64,000 nt of DNA from an uncultured Gammaproteobacteria bacterium (GTDB lineage: Bacteria > Patescibacteriota > Microgenomatia > Daviesbacterales > UBA10151), in contig CAYLXC010000001.1 in NCBI GenBank assembly GCA_964387865.1, positions 50,597 through 114,596 of the forward strand. The letters are read 5' to 3'. The notes beneath the pieces are model-generated. The model made no database searches, had not been told where the DNA came from, and saw nothing but the letters and a program-made list of their open reading frames with translations. The position numbers and the translations under genes are program-made. Positions 4,529 to 62,632 of this stretch are shown here, piece after piece (position 1 is the stretch's first letter; each line of letters opens with the position of its first letter).

Positions 4529-6316
4529 GTGAATAAATTAAATCAGGCAGGTGCTTCTCATATACTCATTCTTGTTGCTGTTGTAGGCTTTCTCTTTTTT
4601 CTACTAATATCCAACGCTTTCGACTTTAAAGATAAACTTTTTAGCAATTTATTCCCTAAACCTCCATCACATGCAGTTTCTCCATATAAAATCGGTGCCT
4701 ATTATTTTGGTATGTGGTCATCTACAGATACTGTACCGGATCATCTGGATAATGTTGAAAGAGTTTATGGAAGACGAGATCTGTGGGGAGGAGTAAAAGA
4801 CTTTTATGGTTTAGAGCCGGGAATCCCAAAAGATACCAGAGGCTGGACCGGAGATTTTTCTCATCTCAAACCGGAAATTGGATACTATGATTACAGTATT
4901 TCTGGTCCTACTATTCTAGAACAACAAATAATTCAGGCTAAACAAAACGGGTTAAGTTTTTTTAATTTTTACTGGTATTGGGATTCCACATATAAAAAAG
5001 AATTTCTTAGCAGTGGAATAAATTCTTTCTTGCAAGCAACCAATAAAAATCAGCTGCAGTTTATGATTTCAATTGCAGCTCATCCTTGGTGTAATGGCCC
5101 TACATGCCTATCAATACCTCTTCAGGATGGAGTGCAAACTACTCAAATTATTGTGGATAAATATTTCTCTCAACCAAATTATCTTAAAACTCAAAATGGA
5201 AGACCGATTATATTTATACTTGACTCACGAGGTATGTATGGAGGAACAATACAAGATACTCAAGACTATATTTCCCTTTTAAAACTAACTTCACAAAACA
5301 GATTAGGTGTTGAACCAATTGTGCTGATTTCCGTTGAAAATCCAGATGCCAGATCAATTACTAATACTGATGGATATTCTTGCGTAGCCACCTATATTCA
5401 ACCTTCTGGAGCACAATCATATCAATATTATCTTGATAATTTTACAAACCATTTTGCAACTTTCACTGATAAACCGCTCATGCCATGTTTTGTGAGTAAC
5501 TTTGATGAACGTCCAAGGCAAGATATATCAATAACAGATAGGAACCAAATACGATATTTTAGTGATTTTTCAGAAACACTTTTTAGGGATGGGGTTACTC
5601 GGGTTAAACAATACATGGATTCCCAAACAAATGAACTTAGTAAGATATTAACAATTTATGCATGGAATGAATGGCATGAAGGTGGAATAATAGAGCCTAA
5701 TGTGAGAGATAAAAATAAAAGGTTAAGCATAATAGCTGAAACATTTAGCTTAACAACAAACCCTATCGGTACTTTTGATCTTGCAAACTGCTCCTTAATA
5801 GAAGGCTGGACCTGTGATGCTGATGATTATAATGCTACGTTGAATGTTCACCTTTACAAGGATGGGCCCTATGGAAGTGGGATATTCATCGCATCAACAT
5901 CTGCAAATATTACAAGGGAGCCAGCTGTTGGAAGTTCTTGTGGAGGAAATCCCAATCATGGATTTTCTTATGTAACACCACCCTCACTAATGGATAGCCA
6001 GCCGCATACAATTTATGCATATGGTATAGATATCCCTTCCGGAACTAATTCCATTCTAAATGGTAATCCTAAAACTATTCAGTGTAATCCCACTCCCTCA
6101 CCTACCCCAACCCCAAGTCCTTCCCCATCTCCTACTCCTACCCCTACTCCACCTCCTAAGACTGGGGATATTAATGGAGATGGATCCGTAAATGTAGTTG
6201 ATTTCTCGATCCTTTTATCTAAATGGAACACATCAGATTCTGCATCTGATCTAAATGGAGATGGGATAGTTAATGTAGTAGATTTTTCTATACTTCTATC
6301 TAACTGGGGGACGTAA
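4529..6316 (+). CDS. paralogous secreted protein (595 aa) with the same N-terminal anchor and C-terminal dockerin module but a different central (putative carbohydrate-active) domain
   Basis: N-terminus MNKLNQAGASHILILVAVVGFLFFLL...DFKDKLFSNLFPK is near-identical in pattern to the upstream gene. Linker PTPSPTPTPSPSPSPTPTPTPPPK. Dockerin repeats GDINGDGSVNVVDFSILLSKW / DLNGDGIVNVVDFSILLSNWGT. The last ~170 nt of each gene are nearly identical at the DNA level. Confidence 0.7.
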   Translation: MNKLNQAGASHILILVAVVGFLFFLLISNAFDFKDKLFSNLFPKPPSHAVSPYKIGAYYFGMWSSTDTVPDHLDNVERVYGRRDLWGGVKDFYGLEPGIPKDTRGWTGDFSHLKPEIGYYDYSISGPTILEQQIIQAKQNGLSFFNFYWYWDSTYKKEFLSSGINSFLQATNKNQLQFMISIAAHPWCNGPTCLSIPLQDGVQTTQIIVDKYFSQPNYLKTQNGRPIIFILDSRGMYGGTIQDTQDYISLLKLTSQNRLGVEPIVLISVENPDARSITNTDGYSCVATYIQPSGAQSYQYYLDNFTNHFATFTDKPLMPCFVSNFDERPRQDISITDRNQIRYFSDFSETLFRDGVTRVKQYMDSQTNELSKILTIYAWNEWHEGGIIEPNVRDKNKRLSIIAETFSLTTNPIGTFDLANCSLIEGWTCDADDYNATLNVHLYKDGPYGSGIFIASTSANITREPAVGSSCGGNPNHGFSYVTPPSLMDSQPHTIYAYGIDIPSGTNSILNGNPKTIQCNPTPSPTPTPSPSPSPTPTPTPPPKTGDINGDGSVNVVDFSILLSKWNTSDSASDLNGDGIVNVVDFSILLSNWGT

Positions 6317-7652
6317 GAAATTTATGTGCTTCCTTAATCCTTTTTATACTTTCCTCCTCGCCTAAAATTTTCATGCATTCAAAAAGCGGTGGGGTTACAA
6401 TCTGGCCTGAGATTGCAACCCTAATTAGTTGAAACATATCAGATGCTGACAAACCTTCTTGACTAGCCAATTCCCTGAAAGTTTTTTCAAACACCTCTGC
6501 TTTCCATGGTTTTTCCATTCTTTCCAGCTCTTCCGCAACTCTTCCAATCTTTAATCTTAAATCTTTAATCCCTGCCTTGCCGGCAGGCAGGTTTAATCTA
6601 TTAAATACCTCTATTTCATATTCCGGCTTTTCCCATAAAAAATCTGTTAATGGCACAAAATCTGATAATTTCTTTATCCTCTCCTTTATTAAAGGTATAA
6701 CTTTTCCAATCTCTTCCTCTGTTGGATGATCCAAGGCTCCCCCTGAAATATTTTTTAAATATTCTAAAATTTGAGATTTAAGATTTGAGTTTTGAGATTT
6801 CCTTATGTATTCCCCATTTAACCACTCAAGTTTTGTTACATCAAAATACGCTGATGAAGCATTCACGTCTTTAAAATCAAAAAGTTTTATCATCTCCTCT
6901 ATTTCAAAAATTTCTTTCCCTTCAGGATGAGTCCAGCCTAAAAGTGCCAAAAAATTAAGTACAGCCTCTTTTAAATACCCATCATCCCTAAACTCTAGTG
7001 TGGATTTTGCCCCATGTCTTTTGGATAACTTAGCTCTGTCAGATCCAACCAAAACAGGCATATGGGCAAATTGCGGATGAATCCACTCAAAAGTATCATA
7101 AATCATCAAATGTTTCGGGGTTGAAGAAATAAACTCATTACCCCGGATTACATGAGTAATTTCCATTAAATGATCATCCACTACATTCGCAAAATTGTAA
7201 GTCGGATACCCGTCTGATTTTAGAATCACAAAATCTTCTTGGGTATTATTAGGAAAACTAATTTTTTTATCTCCTACCAAATCTTGCCAAACAGTTTCCC
7301 CTTCCTTCTTAACCTTAAACCTTATTGCTTTTCCGTCTTTATAAGCAAACCCTTTTTCTAAAAGCTCAAAAGCATATTTTTTATAAATATCCAGTCTTTC
7401 GGATTGAATATAGGGTGCATATGGACCACCGATATCAGGCCCTTCATCATACTCTAAACCTAACCATTTTAAAGTTTGATAAATTTGCTCAACACTTTCC
7501 GCAACAAATCTTTCCCTATCCGTATCCTCAAGCCTTAATATGAATTTCCCTCCCATTTTTTTTGCAAACACAAAATCAAATAGCGCTTGCCAGGCTGTTC
7601 CAATATGTGGTGCGCCTGTTGGGGATGGCGCAAGTCTAACCCTAACTTCCAT
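6300..7652 (-). CDS. gltX: glutamate--tRNA ligase
   Basis: Class I aaRS signatures: PSPTGAPHIG (HIGH) and KLSKR (KMSKS). Typical GluRS N-terminal catalytic-domain organisation. 450 aa. The 3' end overlaps the convergent dockerin gene by 17 nt. Confidence 0.9.
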   Translation of the reverse strand: MEVRVRLAPSPTGAPHIGTAWQALFDFVFAKKMGGKFILRLEDTDRERFVAESVEQIYQTLKWLGLEYDEGPDIGGPYAPYIQSERLDIYKKYAFELLEKGFAYKDGKAIRFKVKKEGETVWQDLVGDKKISFPNNTQEDFVILKSDGYPTYNFANVVDDHLMEITHVIRGNEFISSTPKHLMIYDTFEWIHPQFAHMPVLVGSDRAKLSKRHGAKSTLEFRDDGYLKEAVLNFLALLGWTHPEGKEIFEIEEMIKLFDFKDVNASSAYFDVTKLEWLNGEYIRKSQNSNLKSQILEYLKNISGGALDHPTEEEIGKVIPLIKERIKKLSDFVPLTDFLWEKPEYEIEVFNRLNLPAGKAGIKDLRLKIGRVAEELERMEKPWKAEVFEKTFRELASQEGLSASDMFQLIRVAISGQIVTPPLFECMKILGEEESIKRIKEAHKFLTSPS

Positions 7653-8798: not shown

Positions 8799-9716
8799 TC
8801 AATTAGGCCATTGAAAATTCGCATATGTCCAATTTATAAGGCTCGTTGTTTCACCAAACCTGTCATCAGATCCTAAAACTATTAGCAAGACTTTATGTCC
8901 CCCTCTTTCAACCAGAGTAACCAAATTTTCCTTTGCCCCCTCAGTGTAGCCGGTTTTCACACCTAAAACTCCGCTAACTTGTGACAAAAGCTTATTTAAA
9001 TTTCTAAGCTGATGCTTATACTTTTTATCCAAAGAAACAATATCCGTATCTTTTGTTGAAAATATTCTTGAAAGTTGAGAATCCTTTAAGGCCTCTTGAG
9101 TAATTTTTGATAAATCCGAAGCAGATGAATAGTGATTGGGTGAATCAAAACCAGCCGGGTTTTCAAAATGTGTATTATTTAAATTTAACTCAATCGCTTT
9201 CTTATTCATGGCAGAAACAAAACCTAAGACTCCCCCGGGATAATTTTCGGAAATTGCGTACGCAGCATCATTTCCGGAATTTAGGAGCATTCCATAAAGA
9301 AGTGATCTGAAAGTCAAATCTTCCCCGCTAAAAAGACCTACCTTTGCACCGGGAATTTTTGCTCCATCATTTACAGTCAATACTGAGTTAGGCTGAAAAT
9401 ACCCGGATGCAACCAAAGCTGTCATAATCTTTGTGGTTGAGGCAATCGGCAAGGGAATAAATGCATCTTTTTGATATAAAATTGTATCTGTTTCCAAATC
9501 CTTAACCAAAATTGACCGTGAAGTAGAGAATGGAACTTCAATATTTTTACTTATTGGCGGAATATTATATTTTTGAACTCCGGCCACCTCAGAATTGTTT
9601 TGAGGGATTTGGGATGTAACGAAAACATCTTCTGCAAATGATAATCCTAAGGGTAGTAAAGCAACAACACAGATTGCGAAAATAATTAAAGCAGCGGAGA
9701 AAAAATAATACTTCAC
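8799..9716 (-). CDS. D-alanyl-D-alanine carboxypeptidase (peptidase S11, PBP5/6-like)
   Basis: STTKIMT (SxxK), LLNSGND (SxN) and KTGYT (KTG) motifs. N-terminal signal peptide/TM. Confidence 0.8.
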   Translation of the reverse strand: MKYYFFSAALIIFAICVVALLPLGLSFAEDVFVTSQIPQNNSEVAGVQKYNIPPISKNIEVPFSTSRSILVKDLETDTILYQKDAFIPLPIASTTKIMTALVASGYFQPNSVLTVNDGAKIPGAKVGLFSGEDLTFRSLLYGMLLNSGNDAAYAISENYPGGVLGFVSAMNKKAIELNLNNTHFENPAGFDSPNHYSSASDLSKITQEALKDSQLSRIFSTKDTDIVSLDKKYKHQLRNLNKLLSQVSGVLGVKTGYTEGAKENLVTLVERGGHKVLLIVLGSDDRFGETTSLINWTYANFQWPN

Positions 9717-9726
9717 TTTTTACTTT

Positions 9727-11079
9727 TTACTTTTTACTTAATCTAACATCCACTCTTTCCATATCCCTTGGAAATAGAGAAGCTTCCCTTATATTGGCAA
9801 GATTAAGAATATGCATAGTTATTCTCTCAAGTCCAAATGAAAAACCACCTTCAGAGGGCATGCCAAATTTAAAAGCCATCAAATACATCTCAAAATTTTT
9901 TGGATCCATGCCATGAGATTTAATTGACTCAACTAGCTGGTCATAGTTATTTATTCTCTGGCTACCACTCATTATCTCCACTCCTCTGAAAAGAAGGTCA
10001 TAGCTTAAAGAATAATTAGGATCTTTTGGATCTGGCATAGTATAAAAAGGTTTTGCAGCAATTGGAAAATGAGTCACTGTGACAAAATCGCTCCTATGTT
10101 TTTCTTTTGCCCAATTACATAAATCAATCTCATCTTGTGGAGTTAAATCTTTTTCATTGCGATTATCTCTCCCGAATTCTTTGAAGATTAATTCCTGCGC
10201 TTCCCTCAGTGTAAGCCTTGGGATCTTACCGTAGGCAACGGCATCCACACCAAACTCATCCAGTATATCTTTACATTTTTCTTCTGCATGTTTAATAGTT
10301 TCAATAGCAACTTTTTCCAAAAGGTCCAAAAGGTCTTCAAATTCAACAAATCCAATCTCACAATCCATTTGGGTGATTTCTGCCAAATGTCTGGTTGTAA
10401 CTGAAGGTTCTGCTCTGTAAGCCTTAGTCACTGTAAATACACGTTCAAAAACAGGAACTAGCATTTGTTTATAAAGCTGGGGACTTTGAGTAAGAAAAGC
10501 TTTGTGTTCAAAATAATCTATTTTAAAAACTTCTGCTCCTCCTTCTGTTGCAGATGCAGCAATTGTGGGAACAACAATTTCAGTACATCTTAATTCTCTT
10601 GCAGATTTTCTAAAACCATCCAGAATTGCCTCTTGAACCTTAAAAATTGCTTTAACCTTTGGATGCCTTAAAGTTAAAGATCTAAAATCCAAAAGGGTTG
10701 GAAGTTGTAAATCTAAATTCTTTCCTCCCATATCAAACGGTAATTCTGATGCTTTTGATAAAACTTGAATACTTTCTGCAGAAATTTCAATTTCACCGGT
10801 TGGGATTTTTTTGTTTACCATATGTGGAGGCCTTTTATTAACCTTTCCTGTTACGGAAACAACATCTTGGGGATGTAGATCCCTCACCTCGAAGGTGGGC
10901 TTTGACTCCTTCGAGGTGAATGTGGTCTGCTGCGATACTACAACTTGAATTAGTCCACTTCGATCCCCTATATCCAAGAACAAAATTTTCCCATGATCAC
11001 GCCTGGTTTGCACCCAGCCATTAATTTTCACATTTTCACCTATTTTGTTATTACAATCTAATATTAATGTCCTATTCAT
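9727..11079 (-). CDS. aspS: class IIb aminoacyl-tRNA synthetase, aspartate--tRNA ligase (archaeal/short type; AsnRS cannot be excluded)
   Basis: N-terminal OB anticodon-binding fold. Motif 2 FRAE...TRHLAE and motif 3 GGFSFGLERI. 450 aa. Carries a 39-nt palindromic in-frame insert (see the repeat at 10885-10923). Confidence 0.8.
   Translation of the reverse strand: MNRTLILDCNNKIGENVKINGWVQTRRDHGKILFLDIGDRSGLIQVVVSQQTTFTSKESKPTFEVRDLHPQDVVSVTGKVNKRPPHMVNKKIPTGEIEISAESIQVLSKASELPFDMGGKNLDLQLPTLLDFRSLTLRHPKVKAIFKVQEAILDGFRKSARELRCTEIVVPTIAASATEGGAEVFKIDYFEHKAFLTQSPQLYKQMLVPVFERVFTVTKAYRAEPSVTTRHLAEITQMDCEIGFVEFEDLLDLLEKVAIETIKHAEEKCKDILDEFGVDAVAYGKIPRLTLREAQELIFKEFGRDNRNEKDLTPQDEIDLCNWAKEKHRSDFVTVTHFPIAAKPFYTMPDPKDPNYSLSYDLLFRGVEIMSGSQRINNYDQLVESIKSHGMDPKNFEMYLMAFKFGMPSEGGFSFGLERITMHILNLANIREASLFPRDMERVDVRLSKK
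10885..10923. repeat. palindromic element family B ('cacctcgaagg-tgggctttgactc-cttcgaggtg') inserted in-frame in aspS
   Basis: Perfect 11-bp inverted repeat around a 13-nt loop. A near-identical copy lies in cca (15823-15861). It encodes ...TSKESKPTFEVRD... in the aspS frame. Confidence 0.75.
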
Positions 11080-11124
11080 TACTTAAAAACTAGATGAATG
11101 CATAATAGCAGTTTAAATCCAATC

Positions 11125-11153
11125 TTGACAAGGATTGAATTAGCTGATATATT
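11125..11153 (+). promoter_or_regulatory. sigma70-like promoter (TTGACA - 17 nt - TATATT)
   Basis: Consensus -35 hexamer at 11125-11130 and -10 hexamer at 11148-11153. An ATG follows 7 nt downstream. Confidence 0.5.
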
Positions 11154-11160
11154 ATCTTTT

Positions 11161-11208
11161 ATGCAAAACCTAAGAAGATATTTTAATTTCTTCTTTACCT
11201 TCGCTTAA
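11161..11208 (+). CDS. putative 15-aa Phe-rich leader peptide MQNLRRYFNFFFTFA
   Basis: Near-leaderless ORF directly after the promoter. Its stop codon sits at the base of hairpin A. The composition (FNFFFTF) resembles E. coli pheL ([15 protein letters not shown]). Confidence 0.35.
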   Translation: MQNLRRYFNFFFTFA

Positions 11209-11277
11209 ACGGAGGTTGGTTTTTGTGTAAAAAAACCAACATAACTTAACCTCCGTTTATAAGTGGAGGTTTTTTTT
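11207..11277 (+). promoter_or_regulatory. attenuator-like leader unit 1: hairpin A (aaacggaggtt...aacctccgttt) and alternative terminator B (acctcc..ggaggt + T8) whose 3' arm is the SD for the ATG at 11278
   Basis: Direct reading: 'ggaggt' (11211-11216), 'acctcc' (11249-11254), 'ggaggt' (11265-11270), 'tttttttt', then ATG. Confidence 0.5.
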
Positions 11278-11520
11278 ATGGAGAAAAGAAAGGAAGGTGA
11301 AAAAATGGTAGAAAGAATAATTGTAAAACCCGAATATCCCGAACAAAAAGGTATTACTCGGGCTTTAGCTGATCTTGATCGAATTCAAGTAGATATTAGA
11401 GGAAGAATGATTGGTTCAGAGCCAGTCGCACAGACAGGATCATCAAGTTTACAAACTAGAGTAAAAATATCACTAGAATATCCAGATCCTACTGAACGAA
11501 AACCATATTTCGTTCGCTAA
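11278..11520 (+). CDS. hypothetical small protein (80 aa from ATG 11278; table ORF starts at GTG 11263)
   Basis: SD GGAGGT lies 8 nt upstream of ATG 11278. The product has no recognised motif. Confidence 0.45.
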   Translation: MEKRKEGEKMVERIIVKPEYPEQKGITRALADLDRIQVDIRGRMIGSEPVAQTGSSSLQTRVKISLEYPDPTERKPYFVR

Positions 11521-11522
11521 AC

Positions 11523-11552
11523 TTGACAAAATACATAAACTGCCCTTATAAT
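11523..11552 (+). promoter_or_regulatory. sigma70-like promoter (TTGACA - 18 nt - TATAAT)
   Basis: Consensus hexamers at 11523-11528 and 11547-11552. An ATG follows 11 nt downstream. Confidence 0.5.
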
Positions 11553-11563
11553 TTAAATAGTCT

Positions 11564-11668
11564 ATGTCAAAAGTTGAAGTAATTGATTTAAGAAAAGTAG
11601 AAGTTATTCTTGGCCTCCTTATTTTAGTGCTCGTTACGGGCACTTTTTTGGGAGGTCTTTTTAGGTAA
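11564..11668 (+). CDS. putative 34-aa Leu/Val/Ile-rich leader peptide MSKVEVIDLRKVEVILGLLILVLVTGTFLGGLFR
   Basis: It starts right after the promoter. Its last codons (gggaggtcttttt) form the 5' arm of hairpin A of unit 2. Branched-chain residues (L8, V6, I3) are enriched, as in leu/ilv leader peptides. Confidence 0.35.
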   Translation: MSKVEVIDLRKVEVILGLLILVLVTGTFLGGLFR

Positions 11669-11720
11669 AAAATAACCTAAAAAAGAAAGTAATCAGACCT
11701 CCCTAACGGGAGGTTTTTTA
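11650..11720 (+). promoter_or_regulatory. attenuator-like leader unit 2: hairpin A (gggaggtct...agacctccc) and terminator B (cctccc-taac-gggagg + T6) that contains the SD of the next gene
   Basis: Direct reading of the sequence. Terminator B is a 6-bp GC stem with a 4-nt loop and a U6 tract, immediately followed by start codon TTG 11721. Confidence 0.5.
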
Positions 11721-12011
11721 TTGGGAAAAAATATGAGTGAAAGATTTAGACCAGATACAATACATAGAAGGGCCTATAAAATAGCCTCAGAAACCTTTGC
11801 GAATGTCGAAAGTTTAACTGATGAACAAGTAGGAGTAGTAGAAAATGACAGAAGAGGTAGAAGAAGAATGATCCATTCATTACAGCAAAGTCTGAAGGAA
11901 ACTTCAGGAGAAGAACGAAGACGGTTACTTGAGCAGTTACATGATCTGGAATCGCATCAATTCGCATCAAGATATGCAATCGAAAAACGTTCAGGTAAAA
12001 GATTTTTTTAA
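11721..12011 (+). CDS. hypothetical small basic protein (96 aa, Arg-rich)
   Basis: The ORF follows SD GGGAGGT at optimal spacing from start TTG 11721. No recognised domain. Confidence 0.45.
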   Translation: MGKNMSERFRPDTIHRRAYKIASETFANVESLTDEQVGVVENDRRGRRRMIHSLQQSLKETSGEERRRLLEQLHDLESHQFASRYAIEKRSGKRFF

Positions 12012-12041
12012 TATAACGAAAGAAAGGGGGTGTTTAAATTT

Positions 12042-12248
12042 ATGACAGAACGTGGAGAAATACCTGTTGAACAGCGTGGAATCTTGAATTCAACCATGGA
12101 GCCAGGAGATGTGGCATTCGGGACATTGGATATATACTACAATCCCGGCCCTGACAAAAGCGTGCCAAATTCAGAAGATGGAAATGGAACTGTACGTGAT
12201 CCTGAACCAGTAGAAGTAGTCACAGATATACGCGGTGTACCTTTTTAA
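12042..12248 (+). CDS. hypothetical small protein (68 aa from ATG 12042; table ORF starts at 12030)
   Basis: SD AAGGGGGTG lies 7 nt upstream of ATG 12042. Confidence 0.35.
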   Translation: MTERGEIPVEQRGILNSTMEPGDVAFGTLDIYYNPGPDKSVPNSEDGNGTVRDPEPVEVVTDIRGVPF

Positions 12249-12291
12249 TTCTAAAAACGACCTATTGCACAGAAAAATCAATTACGGTAGC

Positions 12292-12378
12292 ATGTATTCC
12301 ATATGCATACTAAAGCTGAAATTATTATTGGAATTATTATTACTTCTAAAAAGGGAGGTTGTTTGGCGTAAGTCTTAA
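12292..12378 (+). CDS. putative 28-aa Leu-rich leader peptide MYSICILKLKLLLELLLLLKREVVWRKS
   Basis: Ten Leu including LLLELLLLL. The ORF ends inside the 5' arm of hairpin A of unit 3. It is preceded by a weak TTGCAC-17-TAGCAT promoter-like pair. Confidence 0.4.
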   Translation: MYSICILKLKLLLELLLLLKREVVWRKS

Positions 12379-12431
12379 AAAAAGATTCCGCAACAAACCT
12401 CCTGAAAGGGAGGTTTTTTAATGAGAAAAAT
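12348..12431 (+). promoter_or_regulatory. attenuator-like leader unit 3 upstream of the cimA/leuA-family gene: hairpin A (gggaggttgtttggcg...cgcaacaaacctcc), terminator B (acctcc-tgaaag-ggaggt + T6), and an 8-codon uORF (ATG 12421, MRKIWQKL) overlapping the cimA start
   Basis: Direct reading of the sequence. SD GGGAGGT (12408-12414) is optimally spaced for ATG 12421. The cimA ATG at 12432 is in another frame. Confidence 0.5.
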
Positions 12432-14003
12432 ATGGCAGAAACTTTAAAAATAGTACCTTACGATACAACGTTAAGAGATGGTGCTCAGGATGCAAGGGCT
12501 AGACTCTCTGTAAAGAAGAAACTAAAAATTGCTCAAAGATTGGACCAACTTAGGTTCCCCTTTATAGAAGGTGGTTGGCCTGGGGCAAATGAAATTGATA
12601 CAGAATTTTTTAGACAAGCAAGAGGTATGTTTGAGAATAGCCAGTTTGTTGCGTTCGGAATGACCGCAAGAATCGGTGGCAGACCTGAAAACGACGATGG
12701 GCTAAATGCACTTCTTGAGTCTGGAACAAATTTCATCACTATTTTCGGAAAAACATGGGAGACTCATGTCCAAAATGCGTTAAGAGCACCCAGCTATAAG
12801 AACTTGGATACTATTTTCGAAAGTGTTCGCTTTCTAAAAGCTGAAGGACGAGAGGTAATATTTGATGCAGAACACTGGTTTAGTGGTTATAGAGAAAATC
12901 CAGATTATGCTCTTGAATGTTTAGAAGCAGCAGAAGCTGCTGGTGCCAGAACACTAGTTCTTTGTGATACCAATGGAGGCAGTAATCATAGATTTGTAGA
13001 AAGTGGGGTTAAAGCAGCGAGAAGTAGATTTCCAGATACAGAGTTGGGGATCCATGTACATAACGACAGTGCTCTAGCGGTTATTAACACAATCGTTGCA
13101 GTAGAAGCAGGAGTAATACAGGTTCAAGGGACTATTAACGGCTCCGGAGAAAGGGCAGGAAATGTGGATCTGTGCCAAGTATTGCCAACAGCAGAATTTA
13201 AATATGAAATACCTAGCGGTATAGATTTGAGAACTTTAACTAAAGCATCTCGCTTTGTTGAAAGTATAAACGAGATACCTGTACCGGATAATACTCCATA
13301 TGTTGGCAGAAATGCGTTTGCCCACAAGGGAGGAGTACATCAATCCGGCCAGAGGCGAGCTGATAAAAGGCAAGCGAGTGATGAGGCGGCATATGAACAT
13401 ATAGAACCAGCTTTAGTAGGAAATAAGAGAATTTATATTATGTCAGAACAAGGCGGGTCGACAAATATAGAGATTATGGCAGAAAAGCATGGATTTCAAG
13501 TTGACAGAACTGATCCATTATTTACCTTACTCGTTGAAAAAATGAAGCAAAAAGGTATTTTTGGAGATGCACAGGAGTATCTCCTGCTCTATGAAACTTT
13601 AACAAATGAACAAATACCTTTTGATGTTTTAGAAAGCCGTGTTGTAGACGAACGGGGTAGAGATCCTGAAGCTAGCATTAGAGTGCGGGTAAATGGCGAC
13701 ACTCTACATGAAGCTAATTTAGGCAAAGGTCTTATAAATGCTTTTGATAATGCTTTAAGAAAAGCTTTATTACAAAAGTATAAGGAAGTTGCAGACATAA
13801 CACTTGTTCCAGGAAGTTATAGAGTTACACTTCCCATGGGGGATAGTGATTCAGCTGCTGAAGTGGAAGTATACGCTGAGTTTGCCGCAGATGGCCAACA
13901 ATGGAGTTCACGTGTTCGCGGAACGGATCAACAACGTGCCGGAGAAGATACTTTTATCCAGGCTTACCAATATTACATTTTAAGAAGGCGTTCAGGTTTC
14001 TAA
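12432..14003 (+). CDS. cimA: (R)-citramalate synthase / 2-isopropylmalate synthase family protein (DRE-TIM metallolyase with C-terminal LeuA-dimer regulatory domain)
   Basis: N-terminal DTTLRDGAQ hallmark, HxH metal site (IHVHND), 523 aa with a C-terminal regulatory domain typical of CimA/LeuA. Composition is GC-richer than the flanking genes. Confidence 0.8.
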   Translation: MAETLKIVPYDTTLRDGAQDARARLSVKKKLKIAQRLDQLRFPFIEGGWPGANEIDTEFFRQARGMFENSQFVAFGMTARIGGRPENDDGLNALLESGTNFITIFGKTWETHVQNALRAPSYKNLDTIFESVRFLKAEGREVIFDAEHWFSGYRENPDYALECLEAAEAAGARTLVLCDTNGGSNHRFVESGVKAARSRFPDTELGIHVHNDSALAVINTIVAVEAGVIQVQGTINGSGERAGNVDLCQVLPTAEFKYEIPSGIDLRTLTKASRFVESINEIPVPDNTPYVGRNAFAHKGGVHQSGQRRADKRQASDEAAYEHIEPALVGNKRIYIMSEQGGSTNIEIMAEKHGFQVDRTDPLFTLLVEKMKQKGIFGDAQEYLLLYETLTNEQIPFDVLESRVVDERGRDPEASIRVRVNGDTLHEANLGKGLINAFDNALRKALLQKYKEVADITLVPGSYRVTLPMGDSDSAAEVEVYAEFAADGQQWSSRVRGTDQQRAGEDTFIQAYQYYILRRRSGF

Positions 14004-15574
14004 ATCCTAATATCTTTCACCTTAAGCTGTAATTTTTCAAAGCCATTAAAATCATCCAGCTCTAGATTATATGCAATATCTATTTGCCGCCCGTTCTGCA
14101 GCATATTTTCCAGCTCCCCCATGCCAAAGGCGATTGTATCCAGTCCAGAGGTCTTAAATTTTAGATGTTTTCCCTGCCCTACTGTCCTTAAATCCGAAAT
14201 TTGCATCCCGTATGTTGCAAATACAGGTCTTGGATTTCCAAAACCGTGAGGCTCAAACTTTTTTAATTCTTTAACCAAATCCAATTTTAATTTTTCATAG
14301 TCAATTTCCGCATCTATATTTAACACCTTTTCATTCTCTTCCAATTCCAACTTAACTTCCTCCATTCTTTTTTTAAAAATATTTATATGTTTAGTTAAAA
14401 TTGAAAAACCTGCTGCACCCGGATGACCCCCAACATCAACCAAGATATCCGCGTGTTTTCTTATAAGCTCTACTATATTTATTCCATTAATTGACCTTGC
14501 TGACCCTTTTGAAATACTCTCTCCAACAGAAATTGCAATTGCGGGACGATAAAATTCTTCTGTAATCCTTCCGGCAACAAGTCCGATTATCCCTGGTGAC
14601 CAGCTTTTGCTGTATAGAACATGAATCAAGTTCTCCTGAACAATTAACTTTTTTGCCTCCTCTAATGCATTAATTGTCATTTGTTGCCTGGTAGTATTTG
14701 TGTCAGAAAGCAATTTGGAAAGTTTTCTTGCTTTTACTGGATCTTTTGTGCAAAGAAGTCTTAAAGAATCTATTGCATGCTCAAGCCTTCCCATGGCATT
14801 TATTCTTGGCCCCAGAATATGACCTATTTCATATGATGAGATATTGCCAAAACTAAGTCCTGACTCATTCATTAAAGATAAAAGTCCAATATTTGTAGTT
14901 TTATTTAAAATTCTTAACCCCTCCACCGTAAACGCTCTACCCAGACTAACAAGGGGTAATAAATCACAAACAGTTGCTATTGCTGCAAATTGTAATAATT
15001 CATTTGCCAAATCTTTTTTAATAAGTCCACGGATTAAACACCATCCAACAGCTGCCCCGCACATTTTTGTGGAATGCACTATTGCAAATGAATCCGGCTT
15101 TTCATCAAGTGGAATATGATGATCGGTTATTATTAAATCCAACCCCAATTCTTTTGCATATTTCGCCTGCTCTATAGCAGTTATTCCATTATCTACAGTA
15201 ATCACAACAGTAGCTCCGGAATCTCTGGCAAACTCCAAACCCAATCTTGACAACCCATATCCTTCTTTTTCCCTATGAGGAATATAGGGCAATACTTTTG
15301 CGCCTATTGATGTTAAAGCTTTATACAAAATTGCACATCCGCAAATCCCGTCAACATCATAATCCCCAAAAACTATAATCTGTTCATTATTTTCTATAGC
15401 TTCCAGGATTCTTTTTTGTCCCTTTTCAATACCGGGTATTTCTAGATCCTTATCATAATCAGAAAGCTTTGGATGAAGAAATTGATCCTTTTCTATATCA
15501 GTTTTTATACCGCGGTTTATTAGAAGCTGCTCAGCTAAATCATCGCTTTTCTTTGGTAATACTTTCCATTTCAT
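14000..15574 (-). CDS. recJ: single-stranded-DNA-specific exonuclease RecJ (DHH/DHHA1)
   Basis: DHH-family motifs (DYDVDG, ITVDNG, IITDHH) and a C-terminal DHHA1 region with a GG motif. Confidence 0.85.
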   Translation of the reverse strand: MKWKVLPKKSDDLAEQLLINRGIKTDIEKDQFLHPKLSDYDKDLEIPGIEKGQKRILEAIENNEQIIVFGDYDVDGICGCAILYKALTSIGAKVLPYIPHREKEGYGLSRLGLEFARDSGATVVITVDNGITAIEQAKYAKELGLDLIITDHHIPLDEKPDSFAIVHSTKMCGAAVGWCLIRGLIKKDLANELLQFAAIATVCDLLPLVSLGRAFTVEGLRILNKTTNIGLLSLMNESGLSFGNISSYEIGHILGPRINAMGRLEHAIDSLRLLCTKDPVKARKLSKLLSDTNTTRQQMTINALEEAKKLIVQENLIHVLYSKSWSPGIIGLVAGRITEEFYRPAIAISVGESISKGSARSINGINIVELIRKHADILVDVGGHPGAAGFSILTKHINIFKKRMEEVKLELEENEKVLNIDAEIDYEKLKLDLVKELKKFEPHGFGNPRPVFATYGMQISDLRTVGQGKHLKFKTSGLDTIAFGMGELENMLQNGRQIDIAYNLELDDFNGFEKLQLKVKDIRI

Positions 15575-15597
15575 ACTACTCGGGGTAAAATTACATC

Positions 15598-17034
15598 ATG
15601 CATTATACACTACCTAATGAGGTAAAAAATATTTTAGATAAATTTAGAAAATCCGGATACCAAATTTATATTGTTGGAGGGGCAGTACGTGATCTTTTGA
15701 TGGGAAAAGAGATTAAGGACTGGGATTTTACAACAGATGCTAAACCTGAGGAAATCTTGAAAGTAATCCCGGAAGGTTTTTACGATAATAAATTCGGAAC
15801 AGTAGGAGTACCAACAGAGAACACCTCGAAGGTGGGCTCTGACTCCTTCGAGGTGAATGATGAAATCATGGAGATCACAACAATGAGAAAGGAAGGTAAG
15901 TATACTGATTTTCGCCACCCATCCGAAGTTTCCTGGACCAACAAAATTGAGGAAGATTTGGCAAGAAGGGACTTTACCATAAATGCTATGGCTTTGGGAA
16001 TCCCAAGCAAACACCTCCGAGGTGAAGATAATGGTGTAACACCAAGAGAACACCTCGGAGGTGAAATCCTGGAAACTGTGGATCCCTTCAGCGGCCAAAA
16101 TGATATTAAAAACCACCTCATCAGGGCTGTCGGAGACCCAACCAAACGCTTCCAGGAAGATGCTCTTCGTCTTATCAGAGCAATCAGGATTGCAACTGAA
16201 TTGGAATTTGACATAGATAAGGAAACATTTGAAGCCATCAAAAAAAATGCCAATCTTTTAAAAGAAATTGCCTGGGAAAGGATAAGAGATGAACTATTTA
16301 AACTCCTTGCATCCACGAATCCATACATGGGTACCTTGAAACTTAGGGAAGCGGGGATACTGCAAATGATTCTTCCAGAGCTTGAGCGCTGTTTTGGGAT
16401 AGTTCAGGAAGGTCCAAAACATGACAGAACTTATGACATTGGTGAGCACTCACTACTAACTTTAAAACATACCCCATCTTCCGATGCACTGACTAGATTT
16501 GCTGCACTTCTTCATGACATTGGCAAACCGGATACAGTGGAAAAGGCTCAAGATGGGAATGTCACATTTTATCAACATGATGTAGTTGGTGGAAATTTGG
16601 TTTTAAAAATAGCAAAAAGATTAAATTTATCAAGAAAACAAACAGATAAATTATTTAGATTAGTAAGATTCCATATGTTTACAGTTGCAGAGAATCAGAC
16701 GGATTCAGCAATAAGAAGATTTATTAAAAATGTAGGTCTGGAAAATATTGAAGACATGATGGCCTTAAGAGTTGGCGACAGGTTGGGAGGAGGGACACAA
16801 ACGGAAACCTCTTGGAGAATGGAAAAATTCAAAGAAAGAATTAAAGAAGTATTAAAAAAGCCATTTTCACTTTCAGATTTAAAAGTAAATGGTAATGATG
16901 TAATGGAAATTCTAAAGATTAAACCCGGCCCAAAAGTAGGTGAAATCCTCCAAAAACTCTTTGAAGAAGTCTTAGAAGATGCTTCTAAAAATAACAAAGA
17001 ATATTTATTAAAAAGGCTCCAAGAACTTAAATAA
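15598..17034 (+). CDS. cca: CCA-adding tRNA nucleotidyltransferase with C-terminal HD domain
   Basis: PolyA-pol/CCA head (GGAVRDLLMG...DWDFTT, RRDFTINA) and HD motif LLHDIGK. Contains three palindromic repeat inserts (15823-15861, 16023-16035, 16061-16073). Confidence 0.85.
   Translation: MHYTLPNEVKNILDKFRKSGYQIYIVGGAVRDLLMGKEIKDWDFTTDAKPEEILKVIPEGFYDNKFGTVGVPTENTSKVGSDSFEVNDEIMEITTMRKEGKYTDFRHPSEVSWTNKIEEDLARRDFTINAMALGIPSKHLRGEDNGVTPREHLGGEILETVDPFSGQNDIKNHLIRAVGDPTKRFQEDALRLIRAIRIATELEFDIDKETFEAIKKNANLLKEIAWERIRDELFKLLASTNPYMGTLKLREAGILQMILPELERCFGIVQEGPKHDRTYDIGEHSLLTLKHTPSSDALTRFAALLHDIGKPDTVEKAQDGNVTFYQHDVVGGNLVLKIAKRLNLSRKQTDKLFRLVRFHMFTVAENQTDSAIRRFIKNVGLENIEDMMALRVGDRLGGGTQTETSWRMEKFKERIKEVLKKPFSLSDLKVNGNDVMEILKIKPGPKVGEILQKLFEEVLEDASKNNKEYLLKRLQELK
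15823..15861. repeat. palindromic element family B copy ('cacctcgaagg-tgggctctgactc-cttcgaggtg') inserted in-frame in cca
   Basis: It differs from the aspS copy by one nucleotide in the loop. It encodes ENTSKVGSDSFEVND. Confidence 0.75.
16023..16073. repeat. two short palindromes, 'cacctccgaggtg' and 'cacctcggaggtg', which are reverse complements of each other, in-frame in cca
   Basis: Both are preceded by 'gaacacctc' and related to family B. They encode the cca-specific insertion ...KHLRGEDNGVTPREHLGGE... Confidence 0.6.
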
Positions 17035-17035
17035 T

Positions 17036-17914
17036 ATGGGTACTGAAGAAACTCAAGAAATAGCTTTCCCAGAAGGCGAAATTCAAGGCCGTGGAGATTT
17101 AGAAAATATACTTGTACAAGCAGTTAGAGAGGATAAATCAATACTACCTGAAGAACTACCAGATCAATTGACCTCGTTTGGAATTGAGAGATATATTAAT
17201 TGGATATCAGAACAAGCAAAGAATGATCCAAGAAATAGAGAGTATGCGGGAGAACTTCACATTGATGCGAATGGTAGATTTATCTACTCGAAAAGACCTA
17301 ACAAAGGATCTGAAATTTCAGTTACACCTAGGGTCACGAAAAACTACGATAAGTTTGCGACAGCTGTCTTAGTACATACCCATCCAGATTCTACATCCTT
17401 CTCAGATAGAGACTTATTAAATGTAAATCTCACAATAATACAATCAGTATCCACAACTGAATTTAATTACATTCTAATAAGAAACCCTGAAATTCTTATC
17501 GCCGAAGGTGAAAGTGATAAATTCCGCGAGGATTCCGATGAAAACCAAAAAGAATGGGCAGCGAGCATAGGTGGACTTAGGGGGACTATTACAGGTGTTG
17601 TTATGAGAGAAAACGGATTAACTTTGAATAACCCACAAGGCCAAAAATATAAATCAATTATATTGAATCTAGTAAAACATATGGAAGTTAGTATCTTTGG
17701 AGCAGACTTGACTAGATACATGCATACACTCGATTTTGCTCGTTTGACAGCTAATAAATACGGCTTAGGATTTTATTATTCGGAGAAAGATGGAATATAT
17801 AGAAGGGTTAAACCATCATTTCTTAATGACTTCACAACAAGAGTAAATCAAGAATTAGTAGAACGGGCCTACCAAGAATTACCAGGTAAACTTGCAGTCA
17901 TAAAAGAAGGCTAA
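17036..17914 (+). CDS. hypothetical protein (292 aa) with a possible JAB/MPN-like metal site (LVHTHPDSTSFSDRD)
   Basis: Its start is 1 nt after the cca stop, so it is co-transcribed. There is an HxH-x6-S-x2-D pattern preceded by acidic residues. Composition is GC-richer. Confidence 0.45.
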   Translation: MGTEETQEIAFPEGEIQGRGDLENILVQAVREDKSILPEELPDQLTSFGIERYINWISEQAKNDPRNREYAGELHIDANGRFIYSKRPNKGSEISVTPRVTKNYDKFATAVLVHTHPDSTSFSDRDLLNVNLTIIQSVSTTEFNYILIRNPEILIAEGESDKFREDSDENQKEWAASIGGLRGTITGVVMRENGLTLNNPQGQKYKSIILNLVKHMEVSIFGADLTRYMHTLDFARLTANKYGLGFYYSEKDGIYRRVKPSFLNDFTTRVNQELVERAYQELPGKLAVIKEG

Positions 17915-27497: not shown

Positions 27498-28483
27498 TTA
27501 GCAACTTTATTTTCTACTCTAGTTACAAAATCTTCCTTTGTAATATCAAACCAAACTACATCTTTTTCTTTCTTAAACCAAGCCAATTGTCTTCTAACGT
27601 ATCCATGAATTTTGTGTTGCATTTTTCTAATTAATCCTTTATCCCCCCAAATCTCCCTTATCTCCCCACTCAAATAATCTGCCAAAACTCCATACTCTAA
27701 ACCCAACTGTCTCATTCTTTTTAAGCTCAATCCACCTTTATATAGTTTTTTAGCCTCCTCAATCATCCCGATTCTATCTACCACCCTATCATCCACTCTT
27801 TTATACAAAAGCTGCCGTGGAGCAGTTAAGCCAATCTTCAGCGTATTTGACAAACTGCGTACAATTTTTAAACGCAGTTTGTCATCCTGAGCGAGTCCCG
27901 AGTTTATCGAGGGACGAGTCGAAGGATCTCCTTTATGATTTGATAATGCCAGTTCTATTGCCCTCACTAACCTCCTGGGGTTTTTCCTATCTGAAGAATT
28001 CATCTTTTGCCACTTTCCTAAGGAAAGTTCCCGAAGTTTTCGCTGCAATTTATCTAAAGATAATTTCTCAAGTCTCTTTCTTAATTTTTTATCCACTGGA
28101 ATCACTAAATTTGATAAACCATAAAGGATCGCCTTAAGATATAACCCTGTTCCACCAACAATAATTGGAAGTTTTCCTCTTTTTATAATCTTCTGTATCG
28201 CCCTGCGAGCATCCTTAACATAGTCGGCCACACTATATTGTTTTTTCGGATCAACCAAATCATACATCCAGATTTTTACACCATCGACTACCCAGTATCC
28301 ATTCCCTTTGACATTTCCTCCATGTTTCGAGATTATTCCAGGCAACTTCCCAGTGCCGATATCTAAGCCTTTATATACCTGCCGTGAATCACAAGCTACG
28401 AGCTCACCATCAAATCTTTTGGCCAACTTCAGTGCCAGATCTGTTTTCCCTGTTGCAGTTGGACCTAAAATAACAAGTATCAT
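27479..28483 (-). CDS. miaA: tRNA dimethylallyltransferase
   Basis: P-loop GPTATGKT, DSRQVYKGLDIGTGK. Carries an in-frame copy of repeat family A (27846-27933). Confidence 0.85.
   Translation of the reverse strand: MILVILGPTATGKTDLALKLAKRFDGELVACDSRQVYKGLDIGTGKLPGIISKHGGNVKGNGYWVVDGVKIWMYDLVDPKKQYSVADYVKDARRAIQKIIKRGKLPIIVGGTGLYLKAILYGLSNLVIPVDKKLRKRLEKLSLDKLQRKLRELSLGKWQKMNSSDRKNPRRLVRAIELALSNHKGDPSTRPSINSGLAQDDKLRLKIVRSLSNTLKIGLTAPRQLLYKRVDDRVVDRIGMIEEAKKLYKGGLSLKRMRQLGLEYGVLADYLSGEIREIWGDKGLIRKMQHKIHGYVRRQLAWFKKEKDVVWFDITKEDFVTRVENKVAKWYHPY
27846..27933 (+). repeat. repeat family A copy inserted in-frame inside miaA
   Basis: 'tatttgacaaactgcgtacaatttttaaacgcagtttgtcatcctgagcgag...gacgagtcgaaggatctcc' has the same module order as the ribosomal-operon copies. 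It encodes the miaA-specific segment ...PSINSGLAQDDKLRLKIVRSLSNTLKIGL... Confidence 0.7.
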
Positions 28484-59501: not shown

Positions 59502-59590
59502 CCGATTTGACAATTTGAATACAATTTTTAATTCAAATTGTCATCCTGATCCGGCGAAGCCGGAGAAGGATCTCCTTCATGAGTCCTCTC
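59502..59590 (+). repeat. repeat family A copy in the rplE-rplX spacer (13-bp-stem hairpin 'tgacaatttgaat/attcaaattgtca' + 'tcctga' + GC hairpin 'tccggcgaagccgga' + 'gaaggatctccttcatgagtcc')
   Basis: Read directly from the sequence. It fills almost the entire 103-nt spacer. Confidence 0.75.
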
Positions 59591-60961: not shown

Positions 60962-61036
60962 GCCGATTTGACAATTTGAATATAATTTCTGAATTCAAAT
61001 TGTCATCCTGAGCGAGCGTAGCGAGTCGAAGGATCT
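60962..61036 (+). repeat. repeat family A copy in the rpmC-rplP spacer
   Basis: 'ccgatttgacaatttgaatataatttctgaattcaaattgtcatcctgagcgagcgtagcgagtcgaaggatct'. Confidence 0.75.
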
Positions 61037-62523: not shown

Positions 62524-62632
62524 TTTGACAATTTGCGTAAAATTACTAAACGCAAATTGTCATCCTGAGCGAGCGAAGTCGAGTCAGACTCGACGGAGCG
62601 AGTCGAAGGATCTCCTTCATGAGTCCGCTCAC
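62524..62632 (+). repeat. repeat family A copy in the rplV-rpsS spacer (longest copy, extra GC hairpin 'gtcgagtcagactcgac')
   Basis: 'tttgacaatttgcgtaaaattactaaacgcaaattgtcatcctgagcgagcgaagtcgagtcagactcgacggagcgagtcgaaggatctccttcatgagtccgctcac'. Confidence 0.75.

Follow-up and report, generated by a model that had tools for sequence, protein, structure and literature searches.

We examined a 64,000-nucleotide (nt) stretch of contig CAYLXC010000001.1 (assembly GCA_964387865.1), which is referred to throughout as the window and whose positions are numbered from its first letter. Although deposited under the label of an uncultured gammaproteobacterium, the source organism is a member of Candidatus Daviesbacteria, in the Microgenomates of the candidate phyla radiation (CPR). 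The window encodes a CCA-adding tRNA nucleotidyltransferase (cca) whose reading frame contains two short, palindromic, in-frame inserts, designated here elements A and B, and a second copy of element A resides in the aspartyl-tRNA synthetase (AspRS) gene, aspS. The relevant features are listed below.

9727-11079, minus strand: aspS, non-discriminating aspartyl-tRNA synthetase (open reading frame [ORF] of 450 amino acids [aa]; Pfam and source annotations)
10884-10919, plus strand: element A, aspS copy (TCACCTCGAAGG-TGGGCTTTGACT-CCTTCGAGGTGA, perfect 12-bp stem)
15598-17034, plus strand: cca, class II CCA-adding tRNA nucleotidyltransferase with an HD domain (ORF of 478 aa; Pfam, homologs, and structures)
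15634-16116, minus strand: antisense ORF (160 aa), artifactual; shadows cca and spans both elements
15780-16328, minus strand: antisense ORF (182 aa), artifactual; likewise shadows cca
15821-15856, plus strand: element A, cca copy (36-nt unit, A-CACCTCGAAGG-TGGGCTCTGACT-CCTTCGAGGTG-A)
16012-16063, plus strand: element B, cca copy (stem-loop of 52 nt)

Hairpin elements in cca and aspS

The cca product has the head-domain motifs, RNA-binding domain, and HD domain of a class II CCA-adding enzyme: Pfam assigns it PolyA_pol (PF01743), PolyA_pol_RNAbd (PF12627), HD (PF01966), and tRNA_NucTran2_2 (PF13735), and the motifs GGAVRD, DWDF, RRDFTINA, and EDALRLIRAIR are evident in the translated sequence. 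Homologs are recovered at E=0, and its structurally solved relatives include 1miv (a Bacillus enzyme, E = 2e-41) and 6ibp. Element A of cca is a 34-nt hairpin within a 36-nt, 12-codon unit, in which an 11-bp stem (CACCTCGAAGG at 15822-15832 and CCTTCGAGGTG at 15845-15855) encloses a 12-nt loop (15833-15844); aligned to codons, the unit occupies 15820-15855 (N75-V86) and specifies N75-TSKVGSDSFEV-86. Element B has a 13-bp stem, formed by CACCTCCGAGGTG (16012-16024) and its exact reverse complement CACCTCGGAGGTG (16051-16063), and a 26-nt loop that contains an inner 5-bp hairpin (16032-16036 and 16040-16044); it encodes H139-LRGEDNGVTPREHLG-G155. The two elements have the stem sequence CACCTC.GAGGTG in common, and the loop of element B is longer and different. 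Translational read-through of the two would yield the peptides NTSKVGSDSFEV and HLRGEDNGVTPREHLGG.

A preliminary description of this locus, based on the sequence and its ORFs, had proposed three palindromic inserts in cca. All of the palindromic sequences that it named exist within 15822-16073 and are not attributable to chance, but several of their coordinates were wrong: the element given as 39 nt at 15823-15861 is the 36-nt unit whose arms are located above, and the 13-mers assigned to 16023-16035 and 16061-16073 were displaced by 10 to 11 nt. The second 13-mer was correctly recognized as the exact reverse complement of the first; since the two are the arms of a single hairpin, cca holds two inserts and not three. 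The string gaacacctc, said to precede each copy, is present at 15817-15827 and 16046-16056, whereas the copy at 16012 has aaa in front of it. The peptide ...KHLRGEDNGVTPREHLGGE... lies, as originally read, between RRDFTINA and DPFSG in the translation.

Chance is a poor explanation for these structures. The 13-mer pattern (allowing up to 2 mismatches) occurs 6 times against 0.17 expected and in 0 of 100 shuffles, and the 34-mer of element A occurs twice against an expectation of 0.00. The only GC-rich perfect hairpins in the window (stem ≥10 bp, loop ≤45 nt) are elements A and B in cca and the aspS copy, in DNA with a GC content of 31-38%. Folded as single strands, element A of cca reaches -12.4 kcal/mol (z = -5.0) and element B -19 kcal/mol (z = -6.7); DNA folding z-scores of the elements range from -5.0 to -7.4, and 0 of 200 shuffles fold equally well.

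Both segments of cca are true insertions relative to other CCA-adding enzymes, as the preliminary description had supposed: the homolog alignment and 1miv place them in gaps and not over conserved residues. Against 1miv, insert A opens a gap of 13 residues, and the alignment is interrupted at insert B (query residues 133-160 versus chain residues 120-126), and the Pfam head domain spans 154 residues versus 126 profile positions. Among the 120 best Daviesbacteria homologs, picked by protein (67-76% identity; 439-501 aa, mode near 444), the main length-variable regions are two, namely, the loop after FGTVG (site 1) and the loop after RRDFTINA (site 2). Site 1 is empty in 54 of these homologs and holds element A in 27, element B in 18, and something else in 21, while site 2 is empty in 62. 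Across lineages, site 1 contains A forward, A reverse, B-type elements (HLRGE...HLGG), a "SSAISYQLSDKK..RRLTTDD" family, and others; site 2 contains B-type elements and several unrelated palindromes. In an AlphaFold2 model of the cca product built with 70 homologs (mean predicted local distance difference test [pLDDT] score of 88.2), confidence falls below 50 only at residues 77-86 (A) and 141-154 (B), each predicted to lie between two beta-strands.

The aspS product matches Pfam tRNA-synt_2 and tRNA_anti-codon, the latter over 91 residues versus 75 profile positions. Its copy of element A is identical to that of cca at 33 of 34 nt, 4.9 kb apart, and has the same plus-strand orientation; it is hence antisense to aspS and encodes TSKESKPTFEV. 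At a syntenic Daviesbacteria locus (L001), the aspS copy is identical to that of the window at 34 of 34 nt and is read in a third frame, as HLEGVKAHLRG, such that one DNA element gives rise to three peptides. At another syntenic locus (L002), both genes have empty sites. The insert is missing from 83 of 120 AspRS homologs, a sample likewise chosen by protein; element A in the frame of the window occurs in 4 (among them the three closest relatives of the window protein, P0122, P0123, and P0127) and canonical element A in the HLEGVKAHLRG frame in another 4, with most of the remaining occupied loops carrying B-type or other inserts. With 83 of 120 loops empty, the empty state of the aspS loop is likely ancestral, and several gains would have followed.

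The two antisense ORFs opposite cca are shadow ORFs. Neither has a Pfam match, and neither is conserved in orthologs: the antisense frames are closed by stops in the L001 ortholog and open only in shorter stretches in that of L002. The preliminary description had likewise considered them artifacts and saw their probable cause in the repetitiveness of the segment; this cause can be set aside, as antisense stretches of 171 codons are still open after in silico deletion of both inserts. Element A is free of stops in 5 of 6 frames and element B in 4 of 6, and the elements merely lack stops in the antisense frames concerned.

Other small inserts occur in this neighborhood and in related genes. In the gltX-like gene at 6300-7652 (minus strand), a third aminoacyl-tRNA synthetase gene, a different and small palindromic insert, the 17-nt GC-rich hairpin CCTGCCGGCAAGGCAGG (6571-6587), encodes the 7-aa insert LPAGKAG, which is missing from the L002 ortholog. 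In the cca genes of other Microgenomates (L001 10430-10500, L137, L118, L102, and L147), many unrelated, strongly palindromic inserts occupy the loop that separates RRDFTINA from DPFxG, and several further hairpin families at site 2 encode peptides such as VIPAKAGIQ, RLRSGQA, SRFRGNDK, and ESRVKSQESRK..LTLDSS. Between cca and secF, a gene of 292 aa (17036-17914, plus strand) with a weak, sub-threshold DUF4329 match is missing from the otherwise syntenic L001 and L002.

Distribution and variation of the family

An exact-pattern scan for element A (23 of 34 positions fixed by the pattern) across 185,579 species genomes, one per species, returned 84 stretches with 93 distinct copies from 42 assemblies. 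Nearly all of these assemblies are Daviesbacteria, along with a few Curtiss-, Gottesman-, and Levybacteria and one CPR2; some carriers are labeled "uncultured Gammaproteobacteria" in third-party submissions of metagenome-assembled genomes, yet have Daviesbacteria-type genes. The family is phylogenetically narrow: 663 kb surrounding 80 protein-chosen cca genes yielded three A-like copies only, all in relatives with 68-72% identity. No match to the element A pattern was found among IMG/VR viral contigs, which gives no sign of a phage vector, and our search of the open-access literature turned up no account of elements of this type in CPR, Patescibacteria, or Microgenomates.

The preliminary description regarded the inserted peptide as a loop specific to cca. 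Element A is, however, present in aspS and in about 39 unrelated host-gene clusters, including those for MurB, PurL, HMG-CoA reductase, TopA, RF, YchF, an FtsJ-type methyltransferase, a PfkB kinase, a G5/3D-domain protein, AspRS, and the CCA-adding enzyme, and B-type elements are found also in topA, aspS, and intergenic DNA. The flanks of the copies are unrelated up to the boundaries N-CACCTCG...CGAGGTG-N. About 95% of copies (88 of 93) are intragenic, lying in frames that stay open for 300 nt or more; all intragenic copies preserve the reading frame, and the host proteins retain full Pfam domains. Frames are used 36, 28, 18, 4, and 2 times, encoding TS[KEG]VGxDS[FSP]EV (36), TS[KEG]ES[KE]PT[FSP]EV (28), HL[EG]GV[KR]AH[LP]RG (18), and Pro/Arg-rich peptides (4 and 2), with no copy in the frame that contains TGA. 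Orientations with respect to transcription are roughly balanced (38 forward, 50 reverse).

The remaining 5 copies are intergenic or at the end of an ORF. Intergenic copies (L040 1994-2029, L069 538-573, L015 2726-2782, L067 3771-3811, and L055 2497-2509) fall in spacers that separate a stop codon from the following start codon, with the right arm, GAGGTG(A), 6-7 nt upstream of the ATG (13 nt in L069), i.e., in the position of a Shine-Dalgarno (SD) sequence. Read directly, the left arm, CACCTCC, resembles an anti-SD sequence and the right arm, GGAGGTG, an SD sequence. An Rfam 15 scan of positions 9500-17500, with E values up to 1, gave no match on the elements; its only matches, weak ones to Phe_leader and to miRNAs, fell in the aspS-leuA spacer.

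The hairpin itself is conserved through paired changes. Exact-pattern copies fall into three subfamilies with fully compensated pairs (AA/TT, GA/TC, and GG/CC), whose peptides carry K..F, E..S, and G..P, respectively. A covariance model built from these copies, which scores the cca and aspS copies of element A at 61.2 and 61.6 bits, recovered about 25 further, diverged copies at the same loci; these display compensatory stem changes (e.g., CACCTGGAAGG/CCTTCCAGGTG, CACCTTCCAGG/CCTGGAAGGTG, and CACACCGGGGG/CCCCCGGTGTG), and the 12-nt loop, TGGGCYYTGACT, is nearly constant while the stems covary. Over 36 distinct sequences, 94.7% of cells pair, compared to 85.6% in shuffles and 47-56% when the partners are slid, and both sides have changed in 6 of 11 stem pairs.

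Several arrangements suggest copying and recombination. The closest metagenomic cca (L088, 72% identity) contains two identical 56-nt B elements (AAACACCCCCGAGGTG...CACCTCGGGGGTGG) at 5220-5275 and 5421-5476, one in each hot-spot loop and 201 nt apart, and this directly supports copying from one site to another, non-homologous one. In the genes for TopA, MurB, RF, and the G5/3D protein, both loop orientations occur at the same junction and in the same phase, which fits inversion of the loop between the arms; the arms of the hairpin serve as terminal inverted repeats. Solo 13-mers ("HLGG" and "TSEV") resemble collapsed elements, and A-type elements appear to nest in one another, with loops containing a second small palindrome (GAGAGTCC....GGACTCTC) or extended (GGGCTTTGTTCCAACGGACGCCCTC), as in L090 2754-2810, L015 2726-2782, and L094 5224-5274. 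Mapped onto a neighbor-joining tree, the insert states of cca require 52 Fitch changes versus 60 for shuffled labels, a patchy and near-random scatter, although the tree is poorly resolved and star-like and the count thus overstates gains and losses.

Origin and persistence of the inserts

We consider it probable, at roughly two chances in three, that the inserts in cca and aspS are copies of hairpin repeats akin to repetitive extragenic palindromes (REPs) and Rickettsia palindromic elements (RPEs), spread in a hairpin-dependent manner and tolerated in permissive loops. Short GC-rich hairpin repeats would thereby spread within the genomes of Daviesbacteria and other Microgenomates, and copies would land in, or be copied into, coding DNA. 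Those that survive would be a multiple of three bases in length, free of stops in the frame used, and situated in a permissive surface loop, and would be translated as 12-18 extra disordered residues in host enzymes that remain functional. Spread presumably proceeds through the single-stranded hairpin and an enzyme acting in trans, for which a hairpin-specific transposase of the HUH/Y1 type would be the obvious model, and ectopic gene conversion, together with templated repair between the arms, may help to keep copies alike. The avoidance of the stop-containing frame and the strict preservation of reading frame argue for translation of the elements and against their removal.

A number of observations weigh against this account. 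Copy number is low: assemblies have 1-8 exact-pattern copies, and CP066688.1, a complete chromosome of 820 kb, has a single one. No case of polymorphism for an insertion was encountered within a population, and no mobilizing gene, transposase, or REP-associated tyrosine transposase (RAYT) was found within 10 kb on either side of cca, in blocks of 8-21 kb. The sign of a possible target-site duplication is weak: the 2 nt at either flank are identical in 24 of 93 copies versus about 12 expected from composition, orthologous copies do not count independently, and loop codon preferences may bias the figure. Many copies are found at a junction shared by orthologs from several species, which fits old vertical inheritance, and their near-identity would then go unexplained by recent mobility. 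At orthologous sites, elements are 90-100% identical and their flanks 73-80%, a gap that is real but inflated, as the scan fixed 23 of 34 positions; for this reason, we place more weight on the protein-chosen samples. The unbiased pair formed by the window and L001 has an element identity of 63/68. Moreover, template switching between the arms (quasi-palindrome correction) can yield compensatory stem changes without selection and can likewise preserve perfect palindromes in its absence. Recency, gene conversion, or selection at the nucleotide level may each account for the likeness among copies.

An unlikely reading is that the hairpin is a conserved single-stranded DNA or RNA signal at fixed positions of housekeeping genes, whatever the frame, or else the mark of a new, frame-preserving and hairpin-specific insertion mechanism in CPR bacteria. 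As a signal, it would combine an unvarying 12-nt loop with a covarying stem, and its arms would mimic an SD/anti-SD duplex; as the product of such a mechanism, 34 nt plus a 2-nt duplication would make up 12 codons, and the same protein loops would be hit repeatedly. We regard as similarly doubtful the related proposal that the elements are functional cis-acting signals selected at the DNA or RNA level (a protein-binding site or an SD-sequestering mRNA structure) and located in loops since a compact genome offers little intergenic space. The nucleotide sequence is indeed kept despite the difference in frame between the aspS copies of the window and L001 (34/34 nt, different peptides), and the constant loop on covarying stems, the junctions common to orthologs of several species, the low copy number, and the spacing of 6-7 nt between the intergenic right arm and the next ATG are all as a signal would have them. 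Presence is nevertheless patchy, with no insert in 83 of 120 AspRS and 54 of 120 CCA homologs; the same loops host several unrelated palindromic families, the hosts are functionally unrelated, no Rfam family matches, and the near-equality of the two orientations with respect to transcription makes a loop-specific RNA role unlikely. Equally doubtful is spread without any dedicated transposition, in which a few ancient insertions were copied and homogenized by recombination only (ectopic gene conversion via the 13-bp stem, loop inversion, and templated repair). The paired L088 copies in one gene, both loop orientations at an identical junction and phase, the common stems with different loops of A and B, and the apparently collapsed solo 13-mers are what such a process would leave behind, but it does not explain the first arrival in about 39 non-homologous genes or the several unrelated families at the same loops, and tracts of 34-52 nt are short for conversion by RecA to be efficient.

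Removal of the segments before the protein is made, as a mini-intron, by translational bypass, or in an intein-like manner, is very improbable. The elements form strong hairpins, and insertions in rRNA genes, for which CPR bacteria are known, would provide a precedent, but excised elements would need neither to preserve the reading frame, as all intragenic copies do, nor to avoid the stop-containing frame, in which 0 of 93 copies are found. Segments of 36-52 nt are also below the size of any self-splicing intron or intein known to us, and Rfam gives no match. We attach almost no credence to the suggestion, raised in the preliminary description, that cca-specific loops arose by in-place repeat expansion or that the region from 15.8 to 16.1 kb is an assembly artifact or collapse. 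Two 13-mers and the common gaacacctc do resemble a local duplication, yet the same 34-mer recurs in aspS 4.9 kb away and in 42 assemblies, produced independently by different groups and assemblers, and the cca protein of the window is recorded identically in NCBI and ENA.

A tyrosine-recombinase site was also considered, as element A parses 13-8-13 like loxP; it was rejected, given that dispersed sites in essential genes would be destructive and that no other support was found. GC skew, inspected with regard to an ori/ter or parS-like positional role, is monotonic across the window.

Differences in length of 10-60 residues among CPR proteins that are 70-80% identical (439-501 aa for the CCA-adding enzyme and 425-471 aa for AspRS) are accounted for in large part by small palindromic inserts at a few hot-spot loops, and the elements would account for stop-free antisense stretches and for odd peptide repeats such as TSKVGSDSFEV, TSKESKPTFEV, and HLRGE..HLGG. 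They also provide a natural map of insertion-tolerant loops in the CCA-adding enzyme, AspRS, MurB, and TopA. Should the conserved loop turn out to serve in recognition, this would hint at an as yet undescribed activity, in CPR bacteria, that binds or moves hairpins.

Elsewhere in the window, another inverted repeat occurs in four copies, at 59508-59543, 60969-61005, 62526-62562, and 27848-27884; its 13-nt arms (TGACAATTTGAAT/ATTCAAATTGTCA or closely similar sequences) match perfectly and stand 10-11 nt apart. The three copies at 59-63 kb occupy short intervals that separate minus-strand ORFs, and the repeats may be operator, terminator, or processing sites. Three similar leader-like structures (11168-11277, 11602-11723, and 12302-12422) end in CCTCC..GGAGG followed by a T-run and ATG (11250-11286, 11694-11730, and 12394-12430); they precede small ORFs and the leuA-like gene at 12432-14003, have only sub-threshold Phe_leader matches in Rfam, and may be attenuators.

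Comparison with known repeat systems

Long coding palindromes of up to 284 bp are present in the mitochondrial genes of Nematomorpha (PMC6649704). As in the elements described here, inverted repeats lie in coding sequence and both arms are translated, but the nematomorph palindromes are long and mitochondrial and, in the part of that account drawn on here, are not described as one short dispersed family. Bacterial miniature inverted-repeat transposable elements are 70-300 bp in length, with target-site duplications and a recognizable parent insertion sequence (reviewed in PMC10969869). The present elements resemble them in being non-autonomous, in having terminal inverted repeats, and in allowing in-frame fusions, but are at most half their size, show at best a weak sign of such a duplication, and are without a known parent insertion sequence.

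REPs are GC-rich stem-loops of 20-40 bp, with stems of 5-13 bp and loops of 2-20 nt, proposed to be mobilized as hairpins by RAYTs; Opitutus terrae and R. conorii carry intragenic REPs tagged with GTAG or CGTC (Di Nocera et al. 2013, PMC3733652). Like REPs, the elements are single GC-rich stem-loops (an 11-bp stem, a 12-nt loop, and z-scores of -5 to -6 for element A) that form families with sequence subtypes, and intragenic copies are known in both. The elements differ in having no unpaired GTAG/CGTC tag, the flanks displaying only a weak bias toward A on the 5′ side and G/A-A on the 3′ side, and no RAYT gene was seen within 10 kb of cca; REPs, moreover, are high-copy and mostly extragenic, whereas the elements are low-copy and about 95% are in ORFs.

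RPEs are in-frame palindromic repeats in the housekeeping genes of Rickettsia (Ogata et al. 2000, as summarized in PMC10969869 and PMC3733652). They measure about 100-150 bp, reach dozens of copies per genome, and belong to intracellular alphaproteobacteria, whereas the elements reported here, compared with RPE-1 to RPE-10 by description only, are single hairpins of 36-56 nt (36 nt for A and 52-56 nt for B, both below the RPE size range) with 1-8 exact copies per assembly in CPR/Microgenomates. In other respects the two agree: both are palindromic, lack a transposase of their own, stand in frame in many unrelated housekeeping genes (here, 93 copies in about 39 host-gene clusters, 88 of them in frames open over 300 nt or more and none in the TGA-containing frame), and are translated without destroying the protein. 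Compatibility with the protein fold is likewise common to both, and placement in a surface loop is indicated, for cca only, by the low-pLDDT segments and the gaps relative to 1miv. As with RPEs in Rickettsia, this would be selfish hairpin DNA residing almost wholly inside the essential genes of an ultra-compact genome.

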